From IMG/VR virus record IMGVR_UViG_3300022758_000016, positions 1 through 6,417 of that record: DNA of 6,417 nt. One strand, written 5' to 3'. Below, piece after piece: positions 1-6,417 of the stretch. Under the pieces are notes generated by a model. It was not told the origin of the DNA. It saw only the letters and a program-made list of their open reading frames with translations, and searched no databases. Each line of letters opens with the position of its first letter. Positions within the stretch are counted from its first letter, which is position 1. Source of the DNA: a virus. The translations under genes were made by a program, and so were the position numbers.

Positions 1-127
1 ATAAGCAGAAATTTTAATAGCATCCTTGCCCGAATTAAAAGCTCCGTAATAGGGAGATATAGGAGTGTCAGAGGTAGCAGGCAAGAAGCGAACGAAATCC
101 AAAGAAAAATCCACAAGCTTAAGCAAA
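1..127. repeat. Terminal direct repeat, copy A. Identical to 6291-6417 and marks the join of a 6290-bp circular genome.
   Basis: Base-by-base comparison shows 1-127 = 6291-6417, including the final aagcaaa. The repeat is cut off by the window edge, so it may be longer in the source. Confidence 0.9.
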
Positions 128-1167
128 GTAGAACGATCGGTTTTAACAAGAGGCGAAACAGGAGGACAGACAAAACCAAAAGAAAGTCTGGGCCTATTAG
201 AAGAATCAGAGAAAGCAACCCTAACCTCAAAAGTAACCGTCATAGTCTGGGAGGCCTCATCAACAGAATAGGGGTTATTAAAAGAATCGATGCCGATAGA
301 AATGAAAGGCTGTTCGTTACCCTCATCTTCAACAGGAGTAGGAGATGTAGAATAAATAATACGAGCAGTCTGACATTTTTTCAAGTAAGCCATAGGATTA
401 AAAGAGGAAGCCGAAGAATTGGCAAGACCAATTTTAGCAACACCCCGCATGACAGCAACAAAAGGTTCCGAATGAGAATCACCAGTATAAGAAAGGTTAA
501 AAGAACCTAAAGACTGATAACGCCAATAACCACGAGAATTAGGAAGAGGAACAGGGAATGAAATACAACCACCGTCAGAAGAATAAGCAGGTTCCAGCTT
601 GGTAATATGATACTGACCTAATTTCAAAGTAAGATTACCGCCTTTATAATAATTCTCTTGCAAACCAGCGTTAAATTCGATACTCATATTAGAACCAGGA
701 GTTGCCATTGATGAAGGCGCATCCTGAACAGAAGAAATGCTACCCTGGGGCAAATAACCAAAAGTCATTTCAAGCGAAGGAATACCAAAGTAATCACCAA
801 GACCGGAGGGTTTTAACGCACCACCTTCTTGAAGATCAGACGCCTTAAAATTCATATAAGGAGGTACAAATTCCTCTGTGTTATCACTACTAATGAAATC
901 CATATAGTCCTTCCAAAGAGTACGCAAAGGAACTTTAAAAAATGACAAATAAGCTTTCATCTTCGTCTGGATCGGGAACATCATAGGCATAAAGCGAAGA
1001 CCAAACTCGGGTTTAATGCGAATAGAGCTATTAGGAGGCACTAACTCAGTAAAAACAGGAGTAATGCGGCCTAAATCAGTGGTAAAATTGTTATCGTGTG
1101 ACCAATCGAAGCTATTACGCTTAACATCATTTTTAATGTCACCGATCTTGTTAAACACGTTAGCCAT
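1..1167 (-). CDS. Microviridae major capsid protein (VP1 / F-like), N-terminal 389 codons. It continues through the circular junction into 6290->5103, giving about 784 aa in total.
   Basis: ATG at 1167-1165 sits just after an in-frame stop at 1173-1171. I checked every in-frame triplet of 1-1164 and found no stop. The N-terminus reads MANVFNKIGDIKNDVKRNSFDWSHDNNFTTDLGRITPVFTELVPPNSSIRIKPEF...AYLSFFKVPLRTLW. This fits the conserved microvirus F/VP1 N-terminal pattern (RNSFDLSH..., ...LPGD/S..., FFFVP.R..W). The frame (codon tops divisible by 3) matches the 5103-6416 ORF after subtracting 6290. Third-position T bias is strong. This part is absent from the ORF track only because it has no in-window stop. 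Confidence 0.9.
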   Translation of the reverse strand, partial: MANVFNKIGDIKNDVKRNSFDWSHDNNFTTDLGRITPVFTELVPPNSSIRIKPEFGLRFMPMMFPIQTKMKAYLSFFKVPLRTLWKDYMDFISSDNTEEFVPPYMNFKASDLQEGGALKPSGLGDYFGIPSLEMTFGYLPQGSISSVQDAPSSMATPGSNMSIEFNAGLQENYYKGGNLTLKLGQYHITKLEPAYSSDGGCISFPVPLPNSRGYWRYQSLGSFNLSYTGDSHSEPFVAVMRGVAKIGLANSSASSFNPMAYLKKCQTARIIYSTSPTPVEDEGNEQPFISIGIDSFNNPYSVDEASQTMTVTFEVRVAFSDSSNRPRLSFGFVCPPVSPLVKTDRSTLLKLVDFSLDFVRFLPATSDTPISPYYGAFNSGKDAIKISAY

Positions 1168-1442
1168 TACTTAAATGATTGAGGTTGAAAAATTGTTGTA
1201 GAATCAACAGAAGAACTACTACTACTTTCACTCGATTGAGTGGAGTTGTTATTGTTTTTCTGAACAGAGAGAGTAACCGTACATGACGGCAAGAACCAGA
1301 GCAAAAGCGAAAGACCAATAACAACAAGCGCATACAAAATGTAATACACTACGAGGTTAAAAGTACTCTCGCCATCTATTGCGCTCAACGGAGAGGGCAA
1401 TATTTTCCGCAAGAGCGCCAAGATTTGTTTTTTTGTCACCAT
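1167..1442 (-). CDS. Small single-pass membrane protein, function unknown. ATG at 1442 gives 91 aa. Alternative starts are GTG at 1466 (99 aa) or GTG at 1349 (60 aa, just after the Rep stop).
   Basis: Sequence MVTKKQILALLRKILPSPLSAIDGESTFN-LVVYYILYALVVIGLSLLLWFLPSC-TVTLSVQKNNNNSTQSSESSSSSSVDSTTIFQPQSFK. It has one clear hydrophobic helix and then a Ser-rich polar tail. T-ending codons are about 49%, like VP1. The stop TAA overlaps the VP1 ATG as TAATG, which suggests translational coupling. The first ~36 codons overlap the Rep C-terminus in another frame. Confidence 0.45.
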   Translation of the reverse strand: MVTKKQILALLRKILPSPLSAIDGESTFNLVVYYILYALVVIGLSLLLWFLPSCTVTLSVQKNNNNSTQSSESSSSSSVDSTTIFQPQSFK

Positions 1443-2904
1443 ATTTCTTTTTAAATACTTCAACACGGGTTTTTAAATACTGTTCTCGACTGCGAAAATA
1501 CGAATCATCTATTTTAATCTCCAAGACATTTCGTGCTAAAATATCCAAACGTTCTGTTAAAGTGTATATATATTCGTTAAAGTACTCACGATCTTTTATC
1601 CAATTACCGATATTAATGTGAGGTACAACAGGAAGAGTATATTCGCACACATGAGCATAAGCCTCAGCCCATTTTTTACGCTTAAAGGGGTTACAAAACT
1701 CATCCGTATAGTATTGTAACTCACCATCAACAAACCTATCCATAGGGTAAAGACGATAAAGCTGTTGAACGGATTGTTCAAAAAGCGAAAAAGTGTAACA
1801 AAAATCACGAACTGTCTCATATTCTTTAGATTTTAAATAGGATGAAGGGGAAGGTATTAATGTAGATTTTACCCACGAATCTATGGGCATATAAAAAAGC
1901 TTACCGGAACCAGTAACACGATCAACGACGGGAAGAGCTTCGAGAGAGGGATTATTTAAAATCTCATCTTTCCGAGCACGAATATAAGCAGAACCAATGC
2001 CACCGCCTCTATTAGAAGCGGTACGAAATGGAGGCTCACAGGTAGAATGAGGGGCATTAGAACCTTTAACCATGTACTTAGTAATATAGGCCGGAGCACC
2101 GGAATTAGCAGGAAGAACCTTTATCGATCCGATCGGATACCGACGATAAATGAAAGCTCCTGACGGATAACGTAAACGCGCGCCAGCGCATAGATGCGCA
2201 ACAGCCGAGCAGGAGTTACGCTCTTTATATTGATTGAGCGGACAGGTGCGACATTTACTATAAAAAGGTATGCGTTTACCGTTTTCGTCAGACTGGAAAT
2301 GAGACCACGCTTTTTGTATAAATGCTTGGACCTTAAGTATATCCTTAAAATGTGTAACAGGAAAACCCCACAGAAGTAGATGATAATGAGGCCTTTTAGT
2401 GTTATGGCCATACTCGCCACACGCGAAATAGCGCAACGAATGAGGTATAGATTGATTATCAAGTAAAGAGCGTAAACGCTTAAAAAACAACTGTAAATCA
2501 GACTTGCGAAGTGTTTCATAACCATATTCATTTTTAGGGAGATGTTCGGGATTATATGTAAGTGTAATGAACAAAGGAGCAGAACCAGTAGTTTCTGTTT
2601 CCATGATAGCGCGAGTAGCCAAAGCATTGGCTTTACGTTTACGACAAATAATGCAAGAACCACAAGGGACAGCGATATAAAGAGGGATCATATCACCAGT
2701 TTTAGAATTTAAAAGGTAACAATGCTCTATGTCCGAAAGACCAATAGACCATTTTTTAGGGGAGTATTGCCAAGGCTCGAGGACAAAGGTCTCCATGATC
2801 CAGCATTGACAGCGCTCGCGAATATAGATACGATCGAAATCCAAGGCCTTTTTACGGGCCTCGGGATTGATGAGAATGACGGGATGCAGGCATTTAATAT
2901 CCAT
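1357..2904 (-). CDS. Rolling-circle replication initiation protein (Microviridae VP4 / phiX174 gene A-like, HUH endonuclease superfamily), 515 aa from ATG 2904.
   Basis: Motif I FITLTY is verified at 2554-2571 (rc TTCATTACACTTACATAT). Motif II HYHLLL is at 2371-2388, preceded by GEYG...RPHYH. Motif III YITKYMVK is at 2065-2088. A Cys cluster (PCGSCIICRKRK) precedes motif I, as in gokushovirus VP4. I chose the start at MDIKCLHP because the upstream same-frame extension (TTG at 3093) lacks the T-ending codon bias of real genes. Stop TAA at 1359-1357. Confidence 0.92.
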   Translation of the reverse strand: MDIKCLHPVILINPEARKKALDFDRIYIRERCQCWIMETFVLEPWQYSPKKWSIGLSDIEHCYLLNSKTGDMIPLYIAVPCGSCIICRKRKANALATRAIMETETTGSAPLFITLTYNPEHLPKNEYGYETLRKSDLQLFFKRLRSLLDNQSIPHSLRYFACGEYGHNTKRPHYHLLLWGFPVTHFKDILKVQAFIQKAWSHFQSDENGKRIPFYSKCRTCPLNQYKERNSCSAVAHLCAGARLRYPSGAFIYRRYPIGSIKVLPANSGAPAYITKYMVKGSNAPHSTCEPPFRTASNRGGGIGSAYIRARKDEILNNPSLEALPVVDRVTGSGKLFYMPIDSWVKSTLIPSPSSYLKSKEYETVRDFCYTFSLFEQSVQQLYRLYPMDRFVDGELQYYTDEFCNPFKRKKWAEAYAHVCEYTLPVVPHINIGNWIKDREYFNEYIYTLTERLDILARNVLEIKIDDSYFRSREQYLKTRVEVFKKKYGDKKTNLGALAENIALSVERNRWREYF

Positions 2905-2905
2905 A

Positions 2906-3118
2906 TTATAAAGGCAAATTTTCGTCCATATCAAAAAAGGAATCAACATAGTAGCCGACAATAGATGCACCAGTAGCAGGGATAACATAATCACGAAGCC
3001 AACAAAGCTCACGACGAGCAGCCGAGAGATTAACATAAACATGCGTCTTAACAAAGGATTCTTTCCAAACAGAGCGACCGGCCTTAACGCCAAAAAAAAC
3101 GCTTAAACTTAAGGACAC
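2906..3118 (-). CDS. Hypothetical 70-aa protein. GTG start at 3118 is the only in-frame start. Stop TAA lies 1 nt before the Rep ATG (TAATATG).
   Basis: T-ending codons are about 57% in this frame, against about 30% in the overlapping Rep-extension frame. This matches the genome's coding signature. The tight junction with Rep also fits. No recognisable family. Protein: SLSLSVFFGVKAGRSVWKESFVKTHVYVNLSAARRELCWLRDYVIPATGASIVGYYVDSFFDMDENLPL. Confidence 0.4.
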   Translation of the reverse strand: MSLSLSVFFGVKAGRSVWKESFVKTHVYVNLSAARRELCWLRDYVIPATGASIVGYYVDSFFDMDENLPL

Positions 3119-3560
3119 CTTGATATCTTCTTTCCATAACTCAAATGATTTTATTAATTATTTAACATGCCACAAAGATAAGCGTTCCGGGAAACAAAAA
3201 GAATAACCGACTATATGTTATAAAACATATTTCGGTATATTATATCTATAATGCTAAGGTAACATTTGCAACTTCAATGTCAACATGTCAGTTGCGCTTA
3301 TATTATCGAGAGGGAGAGAGCCCGCTCTAACCGCGGTGGGACAATTCTATTCATTTTTTATTGGTTTAGGGCGCGCGCGTCTAATGTCAGGGGGTAAACG
3401 AATAAAGTGAAGCGAACCATTAGCATTTACAGATACATCTATCCTGTAACGCGCTTGGCTCGCTTCGCTCGATTCGCTCACGCTCATTTGGTATATTTCG
3501 CCACGCCTACGGCTTGCTACATTAATGGATAATGAGTACGCCTAACGGCGATCAGCGAGA
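3119..3560 (-). promoter_or_regulatory. Large noncoding region between VP2 and ORF70/Rep. Candidate origin(s) of replication and promoter(s).
   Basis: No ORF with coding bias is present. It is AT-rich with embedded GC-rich elements. These include alternating gcgcgcgcgt at 3371-3380, ccgcgg at 3331-3336, small hairpins, CGCT(C/T) direct repeats at 3452-3485, and an inverted partner gaagcgaa at 3409-3416. A Bacteroidetes-type -7-like motif TAtcTTTG (minus sense) lies at 3173-3180, and a TTGACA/TTGCAA...TATAAT-like cluster lies around 3230-3290. Confidence 0.4.
3452..3485. repeat. Cluster of short direct repeats of the CGCT(C/T) or TTCGCTC type, iteron-like.
   Basis: Sequence cgcttggctcgcttcgctcgattcgctcacgctc. 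TTCGCTC occurs at 3464-3470 and 3473-3479. CGCTC occurs again at 3481-3485 and CGCTT at 3452-3456 and 3461-3465. An inverted copy gaagcgaa lies at 3409-3416. Confidence 0.35.
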
Positions 3561-4712
3561 CTACTTTTTGCCATGGCGTAAGATTTTTTTCGCGATGCCG
3601 CCAGGAGAAGGAAGCCAATCAGAAGCAACCTGCGAAATATGATACAAAGACTGTGTTGCCTGGTTAGCTACGGTGACAATACGCTGGGCATCATCATATT
3701 TTTGGTCCTGTTGGAGCTTAAAAACAGCAGCATCACGGTGTATGTCTATGCTATTGGTATAATGCTCGACTTGCGTCTTTTGGGCATCAGTAAGACGGAT
3801 ATTTGCCTGTTTGAGAGCAGTATCAGTGTCGATATTATTAACTTTAGCATACATGGTCACAAGGATACTCTTTGCTTCGGCTTCGGAAAGATTAACTTTC
3901 GCATCAGTCTCACGTACACGACGTGCAAACTCTTCACACTCCAACTCAAAACGCTTGGTATTAAGTATAGCAGCAGTACGATTAGCAACGGTAGAGCTAT
4001 CCAAATTCGCAGTACGAGACCAAGACTCGGCAACCTGTGCCTTAAGGAGATTGACATGTTCATTAATATCGTTAATTTCAGAAATAAGCTTACTTTTCTG
4101 TTCAGAAGTATATTCAGCCTGCGCCTTGGTTAGCTGAACCTCTAAACCTGACAACTTTATAGCATTATCAGTAGTAGCAGCTTTAACAAAATTATCAATA
4201 TTAAGAGAGGCAACCTCACCTTCTTTCTTCGAAGTATCCGCCTTAATGTTTTTCGTTTCCGCGAGCGTTTTCGCATAGGCAGCACCTTGAAAAAGAGACT
4301 CCATAGCAGTAGGCGTGCCCATAATAGGGCCAGCAACATCAGCAGGCGGGACAGAAGAGGGCATAGCAGCAGAAGCAACATTAGAATCAACAAGACCGGA
4401 AGCACCATTACCGTAAATCAAATCAGGATTTAAACCGGCATCCTTCAAACGAGCCATAACAGCAGAAGGACTATTATACGCACGTTCATCAGCCAAATTC
4501 TCACGCTCAACACGATTATACCATTCAGCCATATCTTTCTGCCATTCACGAGCAAGACGATTCTCTTCTTTTTGAGCAGCGATAGCACGCTTTTGGCGCT
4601 TATTAGCACCAATAGAGCCAAAAAGACCGGAAGCAACACCGACACCAGTATTGAGAAGAGCACCGCCACCAGTACCGGAACCAAGTAAGGCAGTTAATGC
4701 AGCAGCAGACAT
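3561..4712 (-). CDS. Minor capsid / DNA pilot protein (Microviridae VP2, phiX174 H-like), 383 aa.
   Basis: ATG at 4712-4710 and stop TAG at 3563-3561. The N-terminus is Gly/Ala-rich and hydrophobic (AAALTALLGSGTGGGALLNTGVGVASGLFGSIGA), like the H-protein transmembrane region. The segment NSPSAVMARLKDAGLNPDLIYGNG (4407-4472) matches my memory of a conserved gokushovirus VP2 block. The central 200 aa is strongly coiled-coil-like (K/E/A/Q-rich heptads). The gene sits after VP1 as in Alpavirinae/Gokushovirinae. T-ending codon bias is very strong. Confidence 0.75.
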   Translation of the reverse strand: MSAAALTALLGSGTGGGALLNTGVGVASGLFGSIGANKRQKRAIAAQKEENRLAREWQKDMAEWYNRVERENLADERAYNSPSAVMARLKDAGLNPDLIYGNGASGLVDSNVASAAMPSSVPPADVAGPIMGTPTAMESLFQGAAYAKTLAETKNIKADTSKKEGEVASLNIDNFVKAATTDNAIKLSGLEVQLTKAQAEYTSEQKSKLISEINDINEHVNLLKAQVAESWSRTANLDSSTVANRTAAILNTKRFELECEEFARRVRETDAKVNLSEAEAKSILVTMYAKVNNIDTDTALKQANIRLTDAQKTQVEHYTNSIDIHRDAAVFKLQQDQKYDDAQRIVTVANQATQSLYHISQVASDWLPSPGGIAKKILRHGKK

Positions 4713-4723
4713 AAAAATAAATT

Positions 4724-5029
4724 TTAAGTTAATAAATCTTTTTCACGACGCCGAGCTTGCATAATACGACGCTTGGCAGCTTGCGAAAGCTCCCAAAGGG
4801 AATTTCGATCAGCATCAACGCGCAATTCAGGAGGCACGCCTAAACCGGAATCGACAGAAAAAAAGTTAGAGGCATTAGGGACAGAAACAGGAACACCCTG
4901 ACGGGCCAAACGCTCGATATCCGAGGGAGTAATAGACAAACCGGAAACTACAACATCCTCACAGGAATCACGCCGACAAGAAACACGATGATAAGTTTCA
5001 AACGGATTAATACGAGATAACACTTTCAT
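4724..5029 (-). CDS. Hypothetical 101-aa protein between VP1 and VP2. It is mildly basic with an Arg/Lys-rich C-terminus. It may be a DNA-binding or scaffold-type accessory protein.
   Basis: The first ATG is at 5029-5027; the track's start at 5038 is a TTG three codons upstream. Stop TAA at 4726-4724 lies only 11 nt before the VP2 ATG. Codons are T-ending (ATG AAA GTG TTA TCT CGT ATT AAT CCG TTT...). The C-terminus reads AAKRRIMQARRREKDLLT. No family recognised. Confidence 0.6.
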   Translation of the reverse strand: MKVLSRINPFETYHRVSCRRDSCEDVVVSGLSITPSDIERLARQGVPVSVPNASNFFSVDSGLGVPPELRVDADRNSLWELSQAAKRRIMQARRREKDLLT

Positions 5030-5049
5030 AACAAACAATTTTAAAACAA

Positions 5050-5070
5050 TACCGGCACAATAGCGCCGAT
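5050..5070 (-). terminator. Weak hairpin plus U-rich tract just downstream of the VP1 stop. Possible partial terminator or attenuator.
   Basis: The minus-sense RNA reads CGGCgcuauuguGCCG followed by guauuguuuuaaaauuguuuguu. The stem is only 4 bp G-C (5053-5056 with 5065-5068). Confidence 0.15.
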
Positions 5071-5102
5071 ATTGTCAATTAACTAAACATCAGAATTACA
5101 AA

Positions 5103-6417
5103 TTATTCCAAGCGAGGAACAACAACACGAGATATAGGCAATTGGGCAGTACAATCAAAGTGTATCTGACCTAAAATTTTGTCAGAGACCTCGGTAACAG
5201 AAAATACATTATTGACGGAGCCAGGTTGCATAACAGTAAATTCCTTACCTAATTCAGGCGCATTTTCAAAAGAGCGGAACATAATGAAATTACGCAAAGA
5301 AGATAAGAAAAGACCGTGAGCACGATCATTCTTTTGCACATATTCATACCAAGGACGCTGATAACCAAATACAGTATCAAGAGACTTACCCTCAGAATAA
5401 GCCTGAAGAGGAGAGAGCTCACGAAGGTAAATAGGTTGATAACCAATATGATCAAATTCAGGGTTGAAAGAATCAAGACGCTCGCGATAAGTAAGCCACT
5501 TAGGCAAAACAGAATCGTAAACAGGCATAGGCATAACATACATAACACCCATGACAACGCTTTCCTCATCGCAAAAGACAGAAATCGAGCCGTCACTATT
5601 ACCAAAACAAGTCGCAAGGCCAGCCTGGGAGCCCAAAGAACCAACATAAACACCTGTATCAGTAGTCTCTACGGTCTGCGTGATAGGATTAACTATAATA
5701 TCACGAGTAATACCACCGAGATATTCAGGCATATTGAGAGCGTCATAACGAACATTGACATCAAAACGACCCTCAATAATCTCCTTATAGCTAAATCCGC
5801 GGAATTGATTAAGCTCAAGGTAACGCTGATAAGCATTAACATTACGGAAATCATTAATGGAAATACCGGAAGTAACAGGAGACACGAGAGACTGCATATT
5901 AACAGCTTCGCCAGCTTTCAAAGGCGTATAGTTAACACCCTTAAGAGCTTCACCATTACTTTCAAAATCAACTTTAAACGCATTACCCTCTTCGTCAACA
6001 ATTGCAGTATTGACAGTAGTAACCTCATGCCCAGCATCATTAATAGTCTTAGTTTCATAGGTAGTCAAGCCAACAAGAGGCGCAACACCTTGCTGAGGAG
6101 AAGTCAAAGCAGTGGTATAAGCATCAGACTGCCAATTAGCATACATCAAAGAAGTAGGAGTAGAGCTATCAGCACCACCTTCCTCTGAAGTTATCCAACG
6201 ATTATACGTCTTTTTACCATTAAGCAAGAAGGGATTATTGCGAGTATTGCGGATATAAGCGTTATAAATAGCCTCATACGCGCGAAATGGATAAGCAGAA
6301 ATTTTAATAGCATCCTTGCCCGAATTAAAAGCTCCGTAATAGGGAGATATAGGAGTGTCAGAGGTAGCAGGCAAGAAGCGAACGAAATCCAAAGAAAAAT
6401 CCACAAGCTTAAGCAAA
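5103..6417 (-). CDS. Major capsid protein (VP1 / F-like), C-terminal part. It is the same gene as 1-1167; bases 6291-6417 duplicate 1-127. Stop TAA at 5105-5103.
   Basis: The 437-aa ORF in the track is open to the window edge; its leading M is a TTG picked by the ORF caller. Its first residues (LLKLVDFSLDFVRFLPATSD...) are exactly what I obtain reading downstream from the ATG at 1167 through position 127. Length and composition suit a microvirus capsid protein with large insertions. Confidence 0.9.
   Translation of the reverse strand, partial: LLKLVDFSLDFVRFLPATSDTPISPYYGAFNSGKDAIKISAYPFRAYEAIYNAYIRNTRNNPFLLNGKKTYNRWITSEEGGADSSTPTSLMYANWQSDAYTTALTSPQQGVAPLVGLTTYETKTINDAGHEVTTVNTAIVDEEGNAFKVDFESNGEALKGVNYTPLKAGEAVNMQSLVSPVTSGISINDFRNVNAYQRYLELNQFRGFSYKEIIEGRFDVNVRYDALNMPEYLGGITRDIIVNPITQTVETTDTGVYVGSLGSQAGLATCFGNSDGSISVFCDEESVVMGVMYVMPMPVYDSVLPKWLTYRERLDSFNPEFDHIGYQPIYLRELSPLQAYSEGKSLDTVFGYQRPWYEYVQKNDRAHGLFLSSLRNFIMFRSFENAPELGKEFTVMQPGSVNNVFSVTEVSDKILGQIHFDCTAQLPISRVVVPRLE
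6291..6417. repeat. Terminal direct repeat, copy B (wrap-around of the circular genome).
   Basis: Identical to 1-127. The minus-strand capsid ORF reads across it in frame. Confidence 0.9.

Follow-up and report, generated by a model that had tools for sequence, protein, structure and literature searches.

The IMG/VR virus record IMGVR_UViG_3300022758_000016, analysed here over its positions 1 to 6,417 (6,417 nucleotides, nt; hereafter, the window), carries between the genes for Rep and VP1 a small open reading frame (ORF) that is almost certainly a genuine gene and whose product belongs to a family that very probably consists of lipoproteins. What had been noticed as a single odd ORF has become a defined, widespread and hitherto unannotated family, common to many Bacteroides-type microviruses and recognisable by Cys-Thr at the lipobox, by the motif CT-x-S-x-S-[VI]-x-K-N-N and by the sequon D-S-x. 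In the mammalian gut, microviruses rank with the most abundant phages, and for their exit from the cell outside the phiX174-like phages only a role of an M15 peptidase has been suggested, in some lineages (PMC3394797, PMC9239249). By analogy with other systems, we tentatively consider that the most likely job of the small protein would be that of a single-gene lysis effector damaging the host envelope from its periplasmic side. In any case, it is a good but unproven candidate for lysing or shielding the host.

Evidence for a small gene between Rep and VP1

An earlier note on this DNA had described an ORF at 1167-1466, in a frame different from that of Rep and VP1 and beginning inside the 3′ end of Rep. 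Such an ORF is indeed present, on the minus strand at 1466..1167 (99 amino acids, aa, counted from a GTG at 1466): Rep and VP1 share one frame, the small ORF lies in another, and the Rep stop is found at 1357. Its start, by contrast, must be placed elsewhere, as the conserved one is the ATG at 1442, kept in 12 of 12 close genomes and preceded by the A-rich leader TTTAAAAAGAAAT. The GTG at 1466 was rejected as a start because it is mutated in some relatives and because one of them (L011) has a stop between the GTG and the ATG. The gene so defined and its two overlaps are the following.

1167..1442, minus strand: gene for a putative small lipoprotein precursor (91 aa and a stop codon), probably starting at the conserved ATG at 1442
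1357..1442, minus strand: dual-coding overlap of the 5′ end of the small gene with the 3′ end of Rep, 86 nt
1165..1169, minus strand: TAATG stop/start overlap with VP1 (TAA at 1169..1167, VP1 ATG at 1167..1165)

Selection was analysed on an alignment of 12 genomes of the window clade, using the part of the gene that does not overlap Rep. In that part, codon position 3 holds 42 of the 66 variable sites, and the ratio of nonsynonymous to synonymous diversity (pN/pS) is 0.13 in frame, with a synonymous diversity (pS) of 0.37; the other two frames give ratios of 2.4 and 6.4, and both contain stops. Stops or frameshifts were not seen across relatives, so that the conservation of the frame under purifying selection, on which the earlier note had made its proposal depend, is borne out. 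Within the protein, pN/pS is 0.124 for the predicted mature part in the window clade and 0.135-0.147 for the N-terminal part within clades, where selection is as strong as on the tail. Additionally, the free-standing 64-aa homologues of another clade show a pN/pS of 0.157.

The overlap with Rep adds information of a different kind. Synonymous diversity in the Rep frame is 0.097 where the genes overlap, vs 0.259 over the 297 nt before it, a 2.7-fold drop that indicates dual coding and supports translation from the ATG at 1442, and the variable columns dip to 2 of 30 at nucleotides 31-60 of the ORF. The T-ending codon bias that the earlier note had considered common to this ORF and the real genes is also found: in the non-overlapping part, the frequency of T at codon position 3 is 0.50 in frame vs 0.33 and 0.34 off frame, comparable to the values of Rep (0.48), VP1 (0.59) and VP2 (0.53).

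T-rich genomes do yield hydrophobic alternative-frame ORFs, many of which are present here, and a frame left open by chance in T-rich intergenic or overlapping sequence would therefore be the trivial explanation. However, purifying selection specific to the frame in two clades, a conserved start together with a dual-coding constraint, and 128 homologous clusters that are always located in small viral replicons or prophages all speak against it. Selection, start conservation and homologues have thus effectively refuted this extremely improbable reading.

The small gene mostly occupies its own space and is not embedded in Rep, since the overlap covers only 86 of its 276 nt (31%). In fact, the hydrophobic segment of the protein begins just past the Rep stop, and relatives carry the gene free-standing or upstream of Rep (see below). 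At its other end, the overlap of the stop codon with the VP1 ATG as TAATG, which had been correctly noticed, points to translational coupling of the small gene to VP1.

The protein family and its predicted processing

The first protein search returned close homologues plus proteins of 80-81 aa in which the similarity is confined to the tail and the last part of the hydrophobic stretch (...VSC, followed by TVTLSVQKNNNNS and, further on, by ...SSVDST). A profile search of 5.8 billion proteins gave 128 clusters, and an exhaustive search with a hidden Markov model (HMM) of 1.84 billion representatives gave 128 clusters at 50% identity, 41-125 aa in length, 59 of which had E<=1e-10. Typical members have 63-67 aa. 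Their N-terminus is polar or amphipathic and is followed by an uncharged stretch with a median of 13 residues and by [S/A/G]-Cys-Thr; the Cys has a median position of 29, and the mature part a median length of 36 aa. The mature consensus is C-T-[MVL]-S-[ML]-S-[IV]-x-K-N-N-x-x-S-x-Q-x-x-E-Q-...-[VA]-D-S-[TAVIL]-x-[IV], and Cys-Thr is invariant in the family alignments (A1, A2 and A4). Of 116 members, 104 have S at -1 and 12 have A, counts that hold partly by construction, as this set was chosen with the pattern [SA]-C-T; in 115 further, more distant members, the residue is mostly S, A or G.

These characteristics are those of a lipoprotein precursor, of which the n-region, the uncharged hydrophobic region (h-region) and the lipobox [LVI][ASTVI][GAS]-C are all found at the family level. 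For instance, many members present textbook lipoprotein signals (MKKRINYVVLSLVAIIAASC, MNKFAIILSTLLVASC, MIRWIIAGLIAMLVAAC, MTKSTKSLLRSAPVLLAAIILTSAC and ...LLGLLTGC, each followed by T), and canonical lipobox variants among them include LVASC, IAASC, LVAAC, LTSAC and LTGC. As the invariant Cys ends the h-region after a small residue, lipidation is the best explanation for it; the mature part has no second conserved Cys, and an additional Cys occurs in 2 of the 116 members. One member, P0065 (Dulem virus 231), bears the UniRef name 'Lipoprotein'. Between distant lineages, [S/A/G]-C-T and the polar tail are conserved, but the sequence of the helix is not. Likewise, the Pro before the Cys, which the earlier note had singled out, is present in the window protein but is specific to its clade (7 of 116 members).

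Scans of the window protein and of typical members against Pfam, NCBIfam, PHROG and PADLOC gave nothing significant, the weak sub-threshold matches being to the N-terminal signal regions of assorted lipoproteins, and full-text literature searching returned no paper describing a microviral lipoprotein. The family is, consequently, undescribed in the libraries and literature searched. When a typical 64-aa member was compared with the phage collection using tblastn, one record was recovered, that of Dulem virus 231, probably because of the low-complexity filter.

Two unusual members deserve a mention on their own. In P0008 (155 aa, on a JGI contig of 1550 nt), a segment of the VP1 variable loop (...FTSIGIDSFNN) is fused to the lipoprotein tail NSTQSSESSSSSSVDSTTIFQPQTYK, and the protein corresponds to a chimeric assembly or to a recombinant formed at common 'NN' codons. 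In P0142 (115 aa), the tail is replaced by a sequence ending in ...TDRVSKYNQLLRIEEELG..., presumably resembling the C-terminus of enolase, which may point to a junction of prophage and host or to a chimeric gene prediction.

The window protein itself has one strongly hydrophobic segment, LVVYYILYALVVIGLSLLLWFLPS (Kyte-Doolittle 19-residue maximum of 2.58), followed by a Ser/Asn/Thr-rich tail with a polar C-terminus, in agreement with the earlier description of a hydrophobic segment and a Ser-rich polar tail. Its features are listed below.

1284..1442, minus strand: residues 1-53, predicted signal/anchor region, with the basic amphipathic N-terminus MVTKKQILALLRKILPSPLSAIDGESTFN
1284-1355, minus strand: 24-residue hydrophobic segment, ending in the lipobox-like L-P-S
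1281..1283, minus strand: Cys54, invariant in the family; predicted lipidation site and residue +1 of the mature lipopeptide
1170..1283, minus strand: predicted mature lipopeptide CTVTLSVQKNNNNSTQSSESSSSSSVDSTTIFQPQSFK, 38 aa, polar, predicted to be disordered
1197..1205, minus strand: D80-S81-T82, match to the O-glycosylation sequon D-(S/T)-(A/L/V/I/M/T)

It represents a 'long-N' subtype of the family, in which the Cys lies at 40-54; its N-terminus is basic and amphipathic, and its hydrophobic segment is as long as a transmembrane helix. AlphaFold2 (46-sequence alignment) models a helix at residues 25-62 and then a disordered tail, with a predicted local distance difference test (pLDDT) score of 66 overall and <50 in the tail.

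From the sequence, we infer lipidation, cleavage, periplasmic location, glycosylation and host for the window protein in the following way. The small gene would encode the precursor of a very small envelope-targeted lipoprotein, whose hydrophobic segment would act as a Sec signal or anchor ending in the lipobox-like L-P-S-Cys. Cys54 would then be lipidated and the precursor probably cut by signal peptidase II, and the product would be a disordered, Ser/Thr/Asn-rich lipopeptide of 38 residues facing the periplasm of a Bacteroidota host, with the conserved D-S-T as a probable O-glycosylation site. The Pro at -2 and the long N-terminus make cleavage of the window protein less certain than that of the family as a whole, and we consider it probable, on balance, that the long variant of the window clade is actually cleaved.

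Regarding the side of the membrane, the residues after the Cys, T-[MVL]-S..., include no acidic ones. Acidic residues at this place are reportedly the signal for surface export of Bacteroidota lipoproteins, so that their absence makes a periplasm-facing location likelier than surface exposure. Additionally, a D-S-[TAVIL] sequon is present in 112 of 116 members, vs 22% of composition-matched shuffled mature peptides, and the remaining four carry D-S-S. The sequon of the general O-glycosylation system of the Bacteroidota, which modifies non-cytoplasmic proteins, is D-(S/T)-(A/L/V/I/M/T), and D-S-S is listed as tolerated (PMC12871550). A homologue was also found in a prophage on a 270-kb contig of a Bacteroides metagenome-assembled genome (MAG), the only locus from the genome-contig scan, and a second prophage copy lies on a 1.7-Mb contig. 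The sequon and the prophage in the Bacteroides MAG would jointly point to a Bacteroidota host and a periplasmic tail; such a host is probable for the window, the host evidence coming from homologues outside its clade.

The two prophages (L025, 2744-12248, in the Bacteroides MAG, and L026, 2408-12418) occupy the same site, directly downstream of gyrA-like and TPR-protein genes, and share the gene order small ORFs, lipoprotein, Rep, VP1, 157-aa ORF and VP2.

Genome context, possible function and neighbouring genes

Some 25 loci, among them those of the window clade, L004, L005, L107 and L036, have the gene between Rep and VP1; about 28 others, prophages included, have it directly upstream of Rep, and a few are arranged otherwise. 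In L004 it is free-standing, 130 nt past Rep. In almost every locus, the gene ends directly against, or overlapping, the start of the essential gene that follows. When the window clade is compared with the clade ordered Lip-Rep-VP1, the mature lipopeptides are 47-58% identical, whereas identity is 21-26% for VP1, about 30% for Rep (over a fragment) and 26% or less for VP2. Even the length of VP1 differs, from 784 aa in the window to about 575 aa in a distant lineage.

The family is nevertheless not universal. A regular-expression screen for non-homologous, lipoprotein-like ORFs in family-negative relatives found only L087, which matches the HMM, and L036, which has a divergent 52-aa homologue in the Rep-to-VP1 slot that falls below the HMM cut-off and stands outside the 58 HMM-positive loci. 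The family-negative lineages must use something else. In phiHBP1 (L112, PV598014), a B. fragilis phage, and in its clade, an M15 peptidase gene occupies the Rep-to-VP1 slot and the lipoprotein gene is absent; among the loci examined, 58 have the lipoprotein, 11 the M15 peptidase and none has both. In phiHBP1, the only cultured Bacteroides microvirus, the M15A peptidase gene (84-488, minus strand) follows an ORF for a soluble protein of 54 aa, and all genes but VP1 are labelled hypothetical in the GenBank record.

Some lipoprotein-less relatives (L061, 1717-2025; L071, 1510-1818; L076, 978-1289) contain, in an alternative frame, an ORF of ~102 aa that encodes two hydrophobic segments and lies inside Rep, at a matching relative position in the three lineages. 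It may represent an overprinted membrane protein, which would be a genuinely E-like arrangement, or simply result from T-rich codon usage.

The family is also found in a 3781-nt circular replicon that is not an obvious microvirus (L110, 1-10159, assembled as a concatemer with a period of 3781 nt, and L111). There, a 52-aa member overlaps the stop of a gene for a protein of 342-399 aa, and a Rep_trans-like initiator is also carried. The 342-399-aa protein gave no PDB or PHROG match and belongs to an uncharacterised family of >1000 clusters, some with PF19781, located mostly on contigs of 3.5-4.8 kb. The L110 type may be an undescribed group of small single-stranded DNA (ssDNA) phages or plasmids that shares the lipoprotein cassette with microviruses.

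How could such a protein serve a microvirus? Its coupling to the downstream essential gene, read from the sequence, would have it made in the lytic programme, a timing that we infer. The lipopeptide would then damage the envelope from the periplasmic side and free the progeny in the style of colicin lysis lipoproteins, which have ~47 aa (~28 aa when mature), permeabilise the envelope and are lethal when overexpressed (PMC2896534). Lysis-associated genes are known in other microvirus families between VP1 and VP4 (PMC9239249). No other lysis candidate was found in the window, whose remaining ORFs have no family matches: the Pfam and PHROG scans detected no endolysin, holin, peptidase or E-like gene in it. 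Similarly, no holin-like or i-spanin-like partner was found, the adjoining small ORFs being soluble in the four clades considered. A lysis role is tentatively favoured because the lipoprotein would be the only non-structural envelope-directed product of a genome without peptidase, holin or E-like gene, because its gene is coupled inside the lytic operon instead of forming an autonomous moron unit, and because the M15 peptidase fills the same slot in the phiHBP1 clade without ever co-occurring with it in the loci examined. Moreover, the conservation of the lipopeptide while VP1, Rep and VP2 diverged fits a conserved host target better than a capsid-specific receptor. With still more reserve, it is possible that this lipopeptide of ~35 residues, lipid-anchored and probably O-glycosylated, is the single-gene lysis system of a large group of Bacteroidota gut microviruses, acting on a conserved envelope target from the periplasmic side by a mechanism new in phages and encoded in a cassette shared with the 3.8-kb replicon. 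It would then amount to a 'lipopeptide antibiotic' for Bacteroides, akin to the colicin release proteins.

Several observations weigh against the lysis role. It is reached by elimination and analogy, and no homology to colicin lysis proteins was found. The gene occurs in temperate prophages and shifts its genome position as accessory or moron genes do, and the stand-alone small phage lipoproteins characterised to date are, to our knowledge, all either spanin subunits or exclusion factors (Llp, Cor). Related microviruses show a patchy distribution of the family, many having neither the lipoprotein nor the M15 peptidase, and the M15 set is essentially one clade. The identity of the tails is inflated by their low-complexity composition, although the conserved positions are nevertheless specific. 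Regarding the lipoprotein nature itself, ~8 of the 115 distant members carry N, Q, K or D at -1, which breaks the lipobox, and the window variant is atypical, with an FLPSC lipobox, Pro at -2, a pre-Cys region of 53 residues and an h-region of 24, and may remain uncleaved as a signal anchor.

Among the alternatives, it is possible, though rather unlikely, that the protein is a superinfection-exclusion or receptor-masking lipoprotein like T5 Llp or Cor, which would bind the phage receptor or the entry machinery at the periplasmic face of the outer membrane. It would thereby block further microvirus infection, keep progeny off debris and outer-membrane vesicles, and act as a conversion factor in lysogens. 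T5 Llp offers a precedent, as a small lipoprotein of the outer-membrane inner leaflet that blocks FhuA (PMC9586334; 10.64898/2026.03.26.714494), and the lipoprotein architecture, the copies in integrated prophages (one in the Bacteroides MAG) and the patchy, cassette-like distribution over two or more genome positions are what such a factor would show. PHROG matches to 'superinfection exclusion' were also obtained at E 0.03-0.05, which are not significant and probably reflect mere signal-peptide similarity. However, the mature peptide is conserved (47-58%) across very different, and presumably differently targeted, capsids; the gene is embedded and translationally coupled in the lytic operon and forms no autonomous moron unit; and these 6-kb genomes would then still be without any lysis function. 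In addition, its tail is predicted to be disordered and has a single Cys, unlike Llp, which is folded and disulfide-bonded.

A reading in line with the earlier note, an integral membrane 'protein antibiotic' similar to E or to other single-gene lysis (Sgl) proteins, with a transmembrane helix that blocks a MraY/MurJ-type step in the supply of peptidoglycan precursors and with Cys and tail as accessories, is improbable. Known Sgls are small single-transmembrane proteins (PMC10229422, PMC7693330), and the hydrophobic segment of the window clade is indeed of transmembrane length (24 residues), modelled within a single long helix (25-62), in an N-terminal part that within clades is selected as strongly as the tail (pN/pS 0.135-0.147). 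By contrast, the short (15-20 residue), canonical and cleavable signals of many members could not span the membrane as a functional domain, and what is conserved between clades is [S/A/G]-C-T and the tail, not the helix sequence or the Pro. Neither Pfam Microvir_lysis nor any Sgl family was matched, and the gene is not embedded in relatives. Some other periplasmic or envelope accessory role, related to outer-membrane vesicles, capsule or surface phase state, anti-defence, or ssDNA entry or exit, is unlikely as well. The function is unconstrained by any family or structural match, and the patchy distribution and the presence of the family in a 3.78-kb Rep_trans-type circular replicon would suit such a role, but tiny genomes rarely retain non-essential genes at a pN/pS of ~0.13-0.16 across very divergent lineages, and no positive evidence was found for any specific alternative. 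A spanin was rejected, as there is neither a partner gene nor a C-terminal transmembrane domain. Thus, from the earlier proposal of a candidate lysis or membrane-targeting factor, a membrane-targeted, selected and VP1-coupled gene survives and the lysis candidacy is still reasonable, but the E-like transmembrane domain is better regarded as a lipoprotein signal or anchor.

If the protein is a lysis effector, as we tentatively prefer, it would represent a new type of single-gene lysis and point to a vulnerable target in the Bacteroides envelope; as an exclusion factor, it would have no described precedent in Microviridae. In both cases, the combination of the lipoprotein with the Bacteroidota glycosylation sequon would provide a marker of host phylum for uncultured microviruses.

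Regarding the rest of the genome, the window comprises the whole circular genome of a microvirus, 6290 nt, plus a terminal redundancy of 127 nt. The latter is an exact terminal direct repeat (1-127 = 6291-6417) corresponding to k-mer-length assembly redundancy, and VP1 reads through as 784 aa only after its removal. The minus strand carries every gene, the neighbours of the small gene being as follows.

2904..1357, minus strand: Rep/VP4, 515 aa from the ATG at 2904 (phrog_942, PF23343); relatives begin MDIKCLHP
1167..1, minus strand: 5′ part of the gene for the major capsid protein VP1 (784 aa when complete), which runs over the circular junction as far as 5103 (PF02305 Phage_F, phrog_514)
5038..4724, minus strand: 104-aa ORF between VP1 and VP2
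4712..3561, minus strand: VP2 pilot protein
2906-3118, minus strand: 70-aa ORF upstream of Rep

The 104-aa (4724-5038) and 70-aa (2906-3118) ORFs have no Pfam or PHROG match, and their positions correspond to a 'hypothetical protein' in the nearest GenBank relatives. The nearest public genomes are Microviridae from dog faeces, namely MG945725 (89% nt identity), MG945130 (84%) and MG945256 (70%). Two of these records are irregular. In MG945256.1 (L003), the lipoprotein region is tandemly duplicated at 1376-2270, with a truncated-tail copy at 1376-1717 and a full copy at 1718-2044, and the 5′ end of VP1 is present twice (at about 2040 and from 2177); the duplication may be genuine or an assembly artefact, the record being marked 'UNVERIFIED'. 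In MG945130.1 (L002), VP1 is split into two overlapping frames, 1735-2046 and 1893-4061, by an apparent frameshift ~100 codons in, and VP1 is annotated there from 1995 onwards only; probably the genome is defective or the sequence contains an error.

Comparison with known systems

The window protein belongs to none of the phiX174 E, colicin lysis, spanin or Llp/Cor families, and the similarities that follow are of architecture and context. The closest of them are with the colicin lysis or bacteriocin release proteins (BRPs; Lysis_col, e.g., ColE7 Cel and ColE1 Kil). Both are very small lipoprotein precursors that yield a polar, apparently unstructured, Ser/Thr-rich lipopeptide (about 28-38 aa), and both are single-component, encoded in a tiny replicon and co-transcribed with the cargo that leaves the cell. 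The colicin-type architecture, with a precursor of ~45-50 aa and a mature part of ~28-35 aa, is approached by the family (63-67 aa, mature median of 36 aa) as a resemblance only, as no match to Lysis_col was obtained, even at E<=10, with 7 queries. Moreover, the host of those proteins is among the Enterobacteriaceae, vs, probably, the Bacteroidota in this case, and the O-glycosylation sequon and, in the window clade, the long N-terminal extension are found only here. BRPs act through OmpLA activation, which for the lipopeptide described here is a candidate analogy.

The earlier note had compared the protein with phiX174 E. Both have 91 aa, one hydrophobic segment in the N-terminal half and a frame that differs from that of the neighbours, and both would be candidates for single-gene lysis. 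However, E is encoded wholly inside gene D, it inhibits MraY and its lysis depends on SlyD; activity and conservation reside in its transmembrane domain, which includes Pro21, and E can do without its tail. In the present family, the overlap with Rep is 31% of the gene and relatives are free-standing, the Pro is clade-specific, the tail is conserved and the hydrophobic segment ends in a lipobox Cys. As no similarity to E (Microvir_lysis) was detected either (no Pfam hit at E<=0.01 and no PHROG hit, with only sub-threshold Pfam matches to unrelated families at E<=10), the analogy fails.

The o-spanin Rz1 and the unimolecular spanins share with the window protein a small lipoprotein of outer-membrane type. 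Rz1 is a lysis component of about 40 aa when mature, located in the outer membrane and encoded in an overlapping frame. By contrast, the window protein has no i-spanin partner, C-terminal transmembrane domain or Pro-rich tail, and the genome has no endolysin or holin that it could complement. T5 Llp and Cor are also small phage lipoproteins made during infection and predicted to face the periplasm (PMC9586334). Whereas Llp has a folded domain that binds one receptor (FhuA), the lipopeptide, with its single Cys, is predicted to be disordered and stays conserved among viruses with dissimilar capsids; the searches gave no significant match to Llp or Cor in sequence or fold, and PADLOC gave none.

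Lastly, the M15 peptidase cassette of phiHBP1 (PV598014), a Bacteroides microvirus of ~6.3 kb, is comparable in its position, as it fills the same Rep-to-VP1 slot. Its product, however, is an enzyme of ~134 aa that can be assigned to a fold family; it shares no sequence relationship, and presumably no mechanism, with the lipoprotein. Considered together, these comparisons suggest that the window protein would work most like a small lipoprotein effector of the phage- or plasmid-encoded kind that acts on the envelope.

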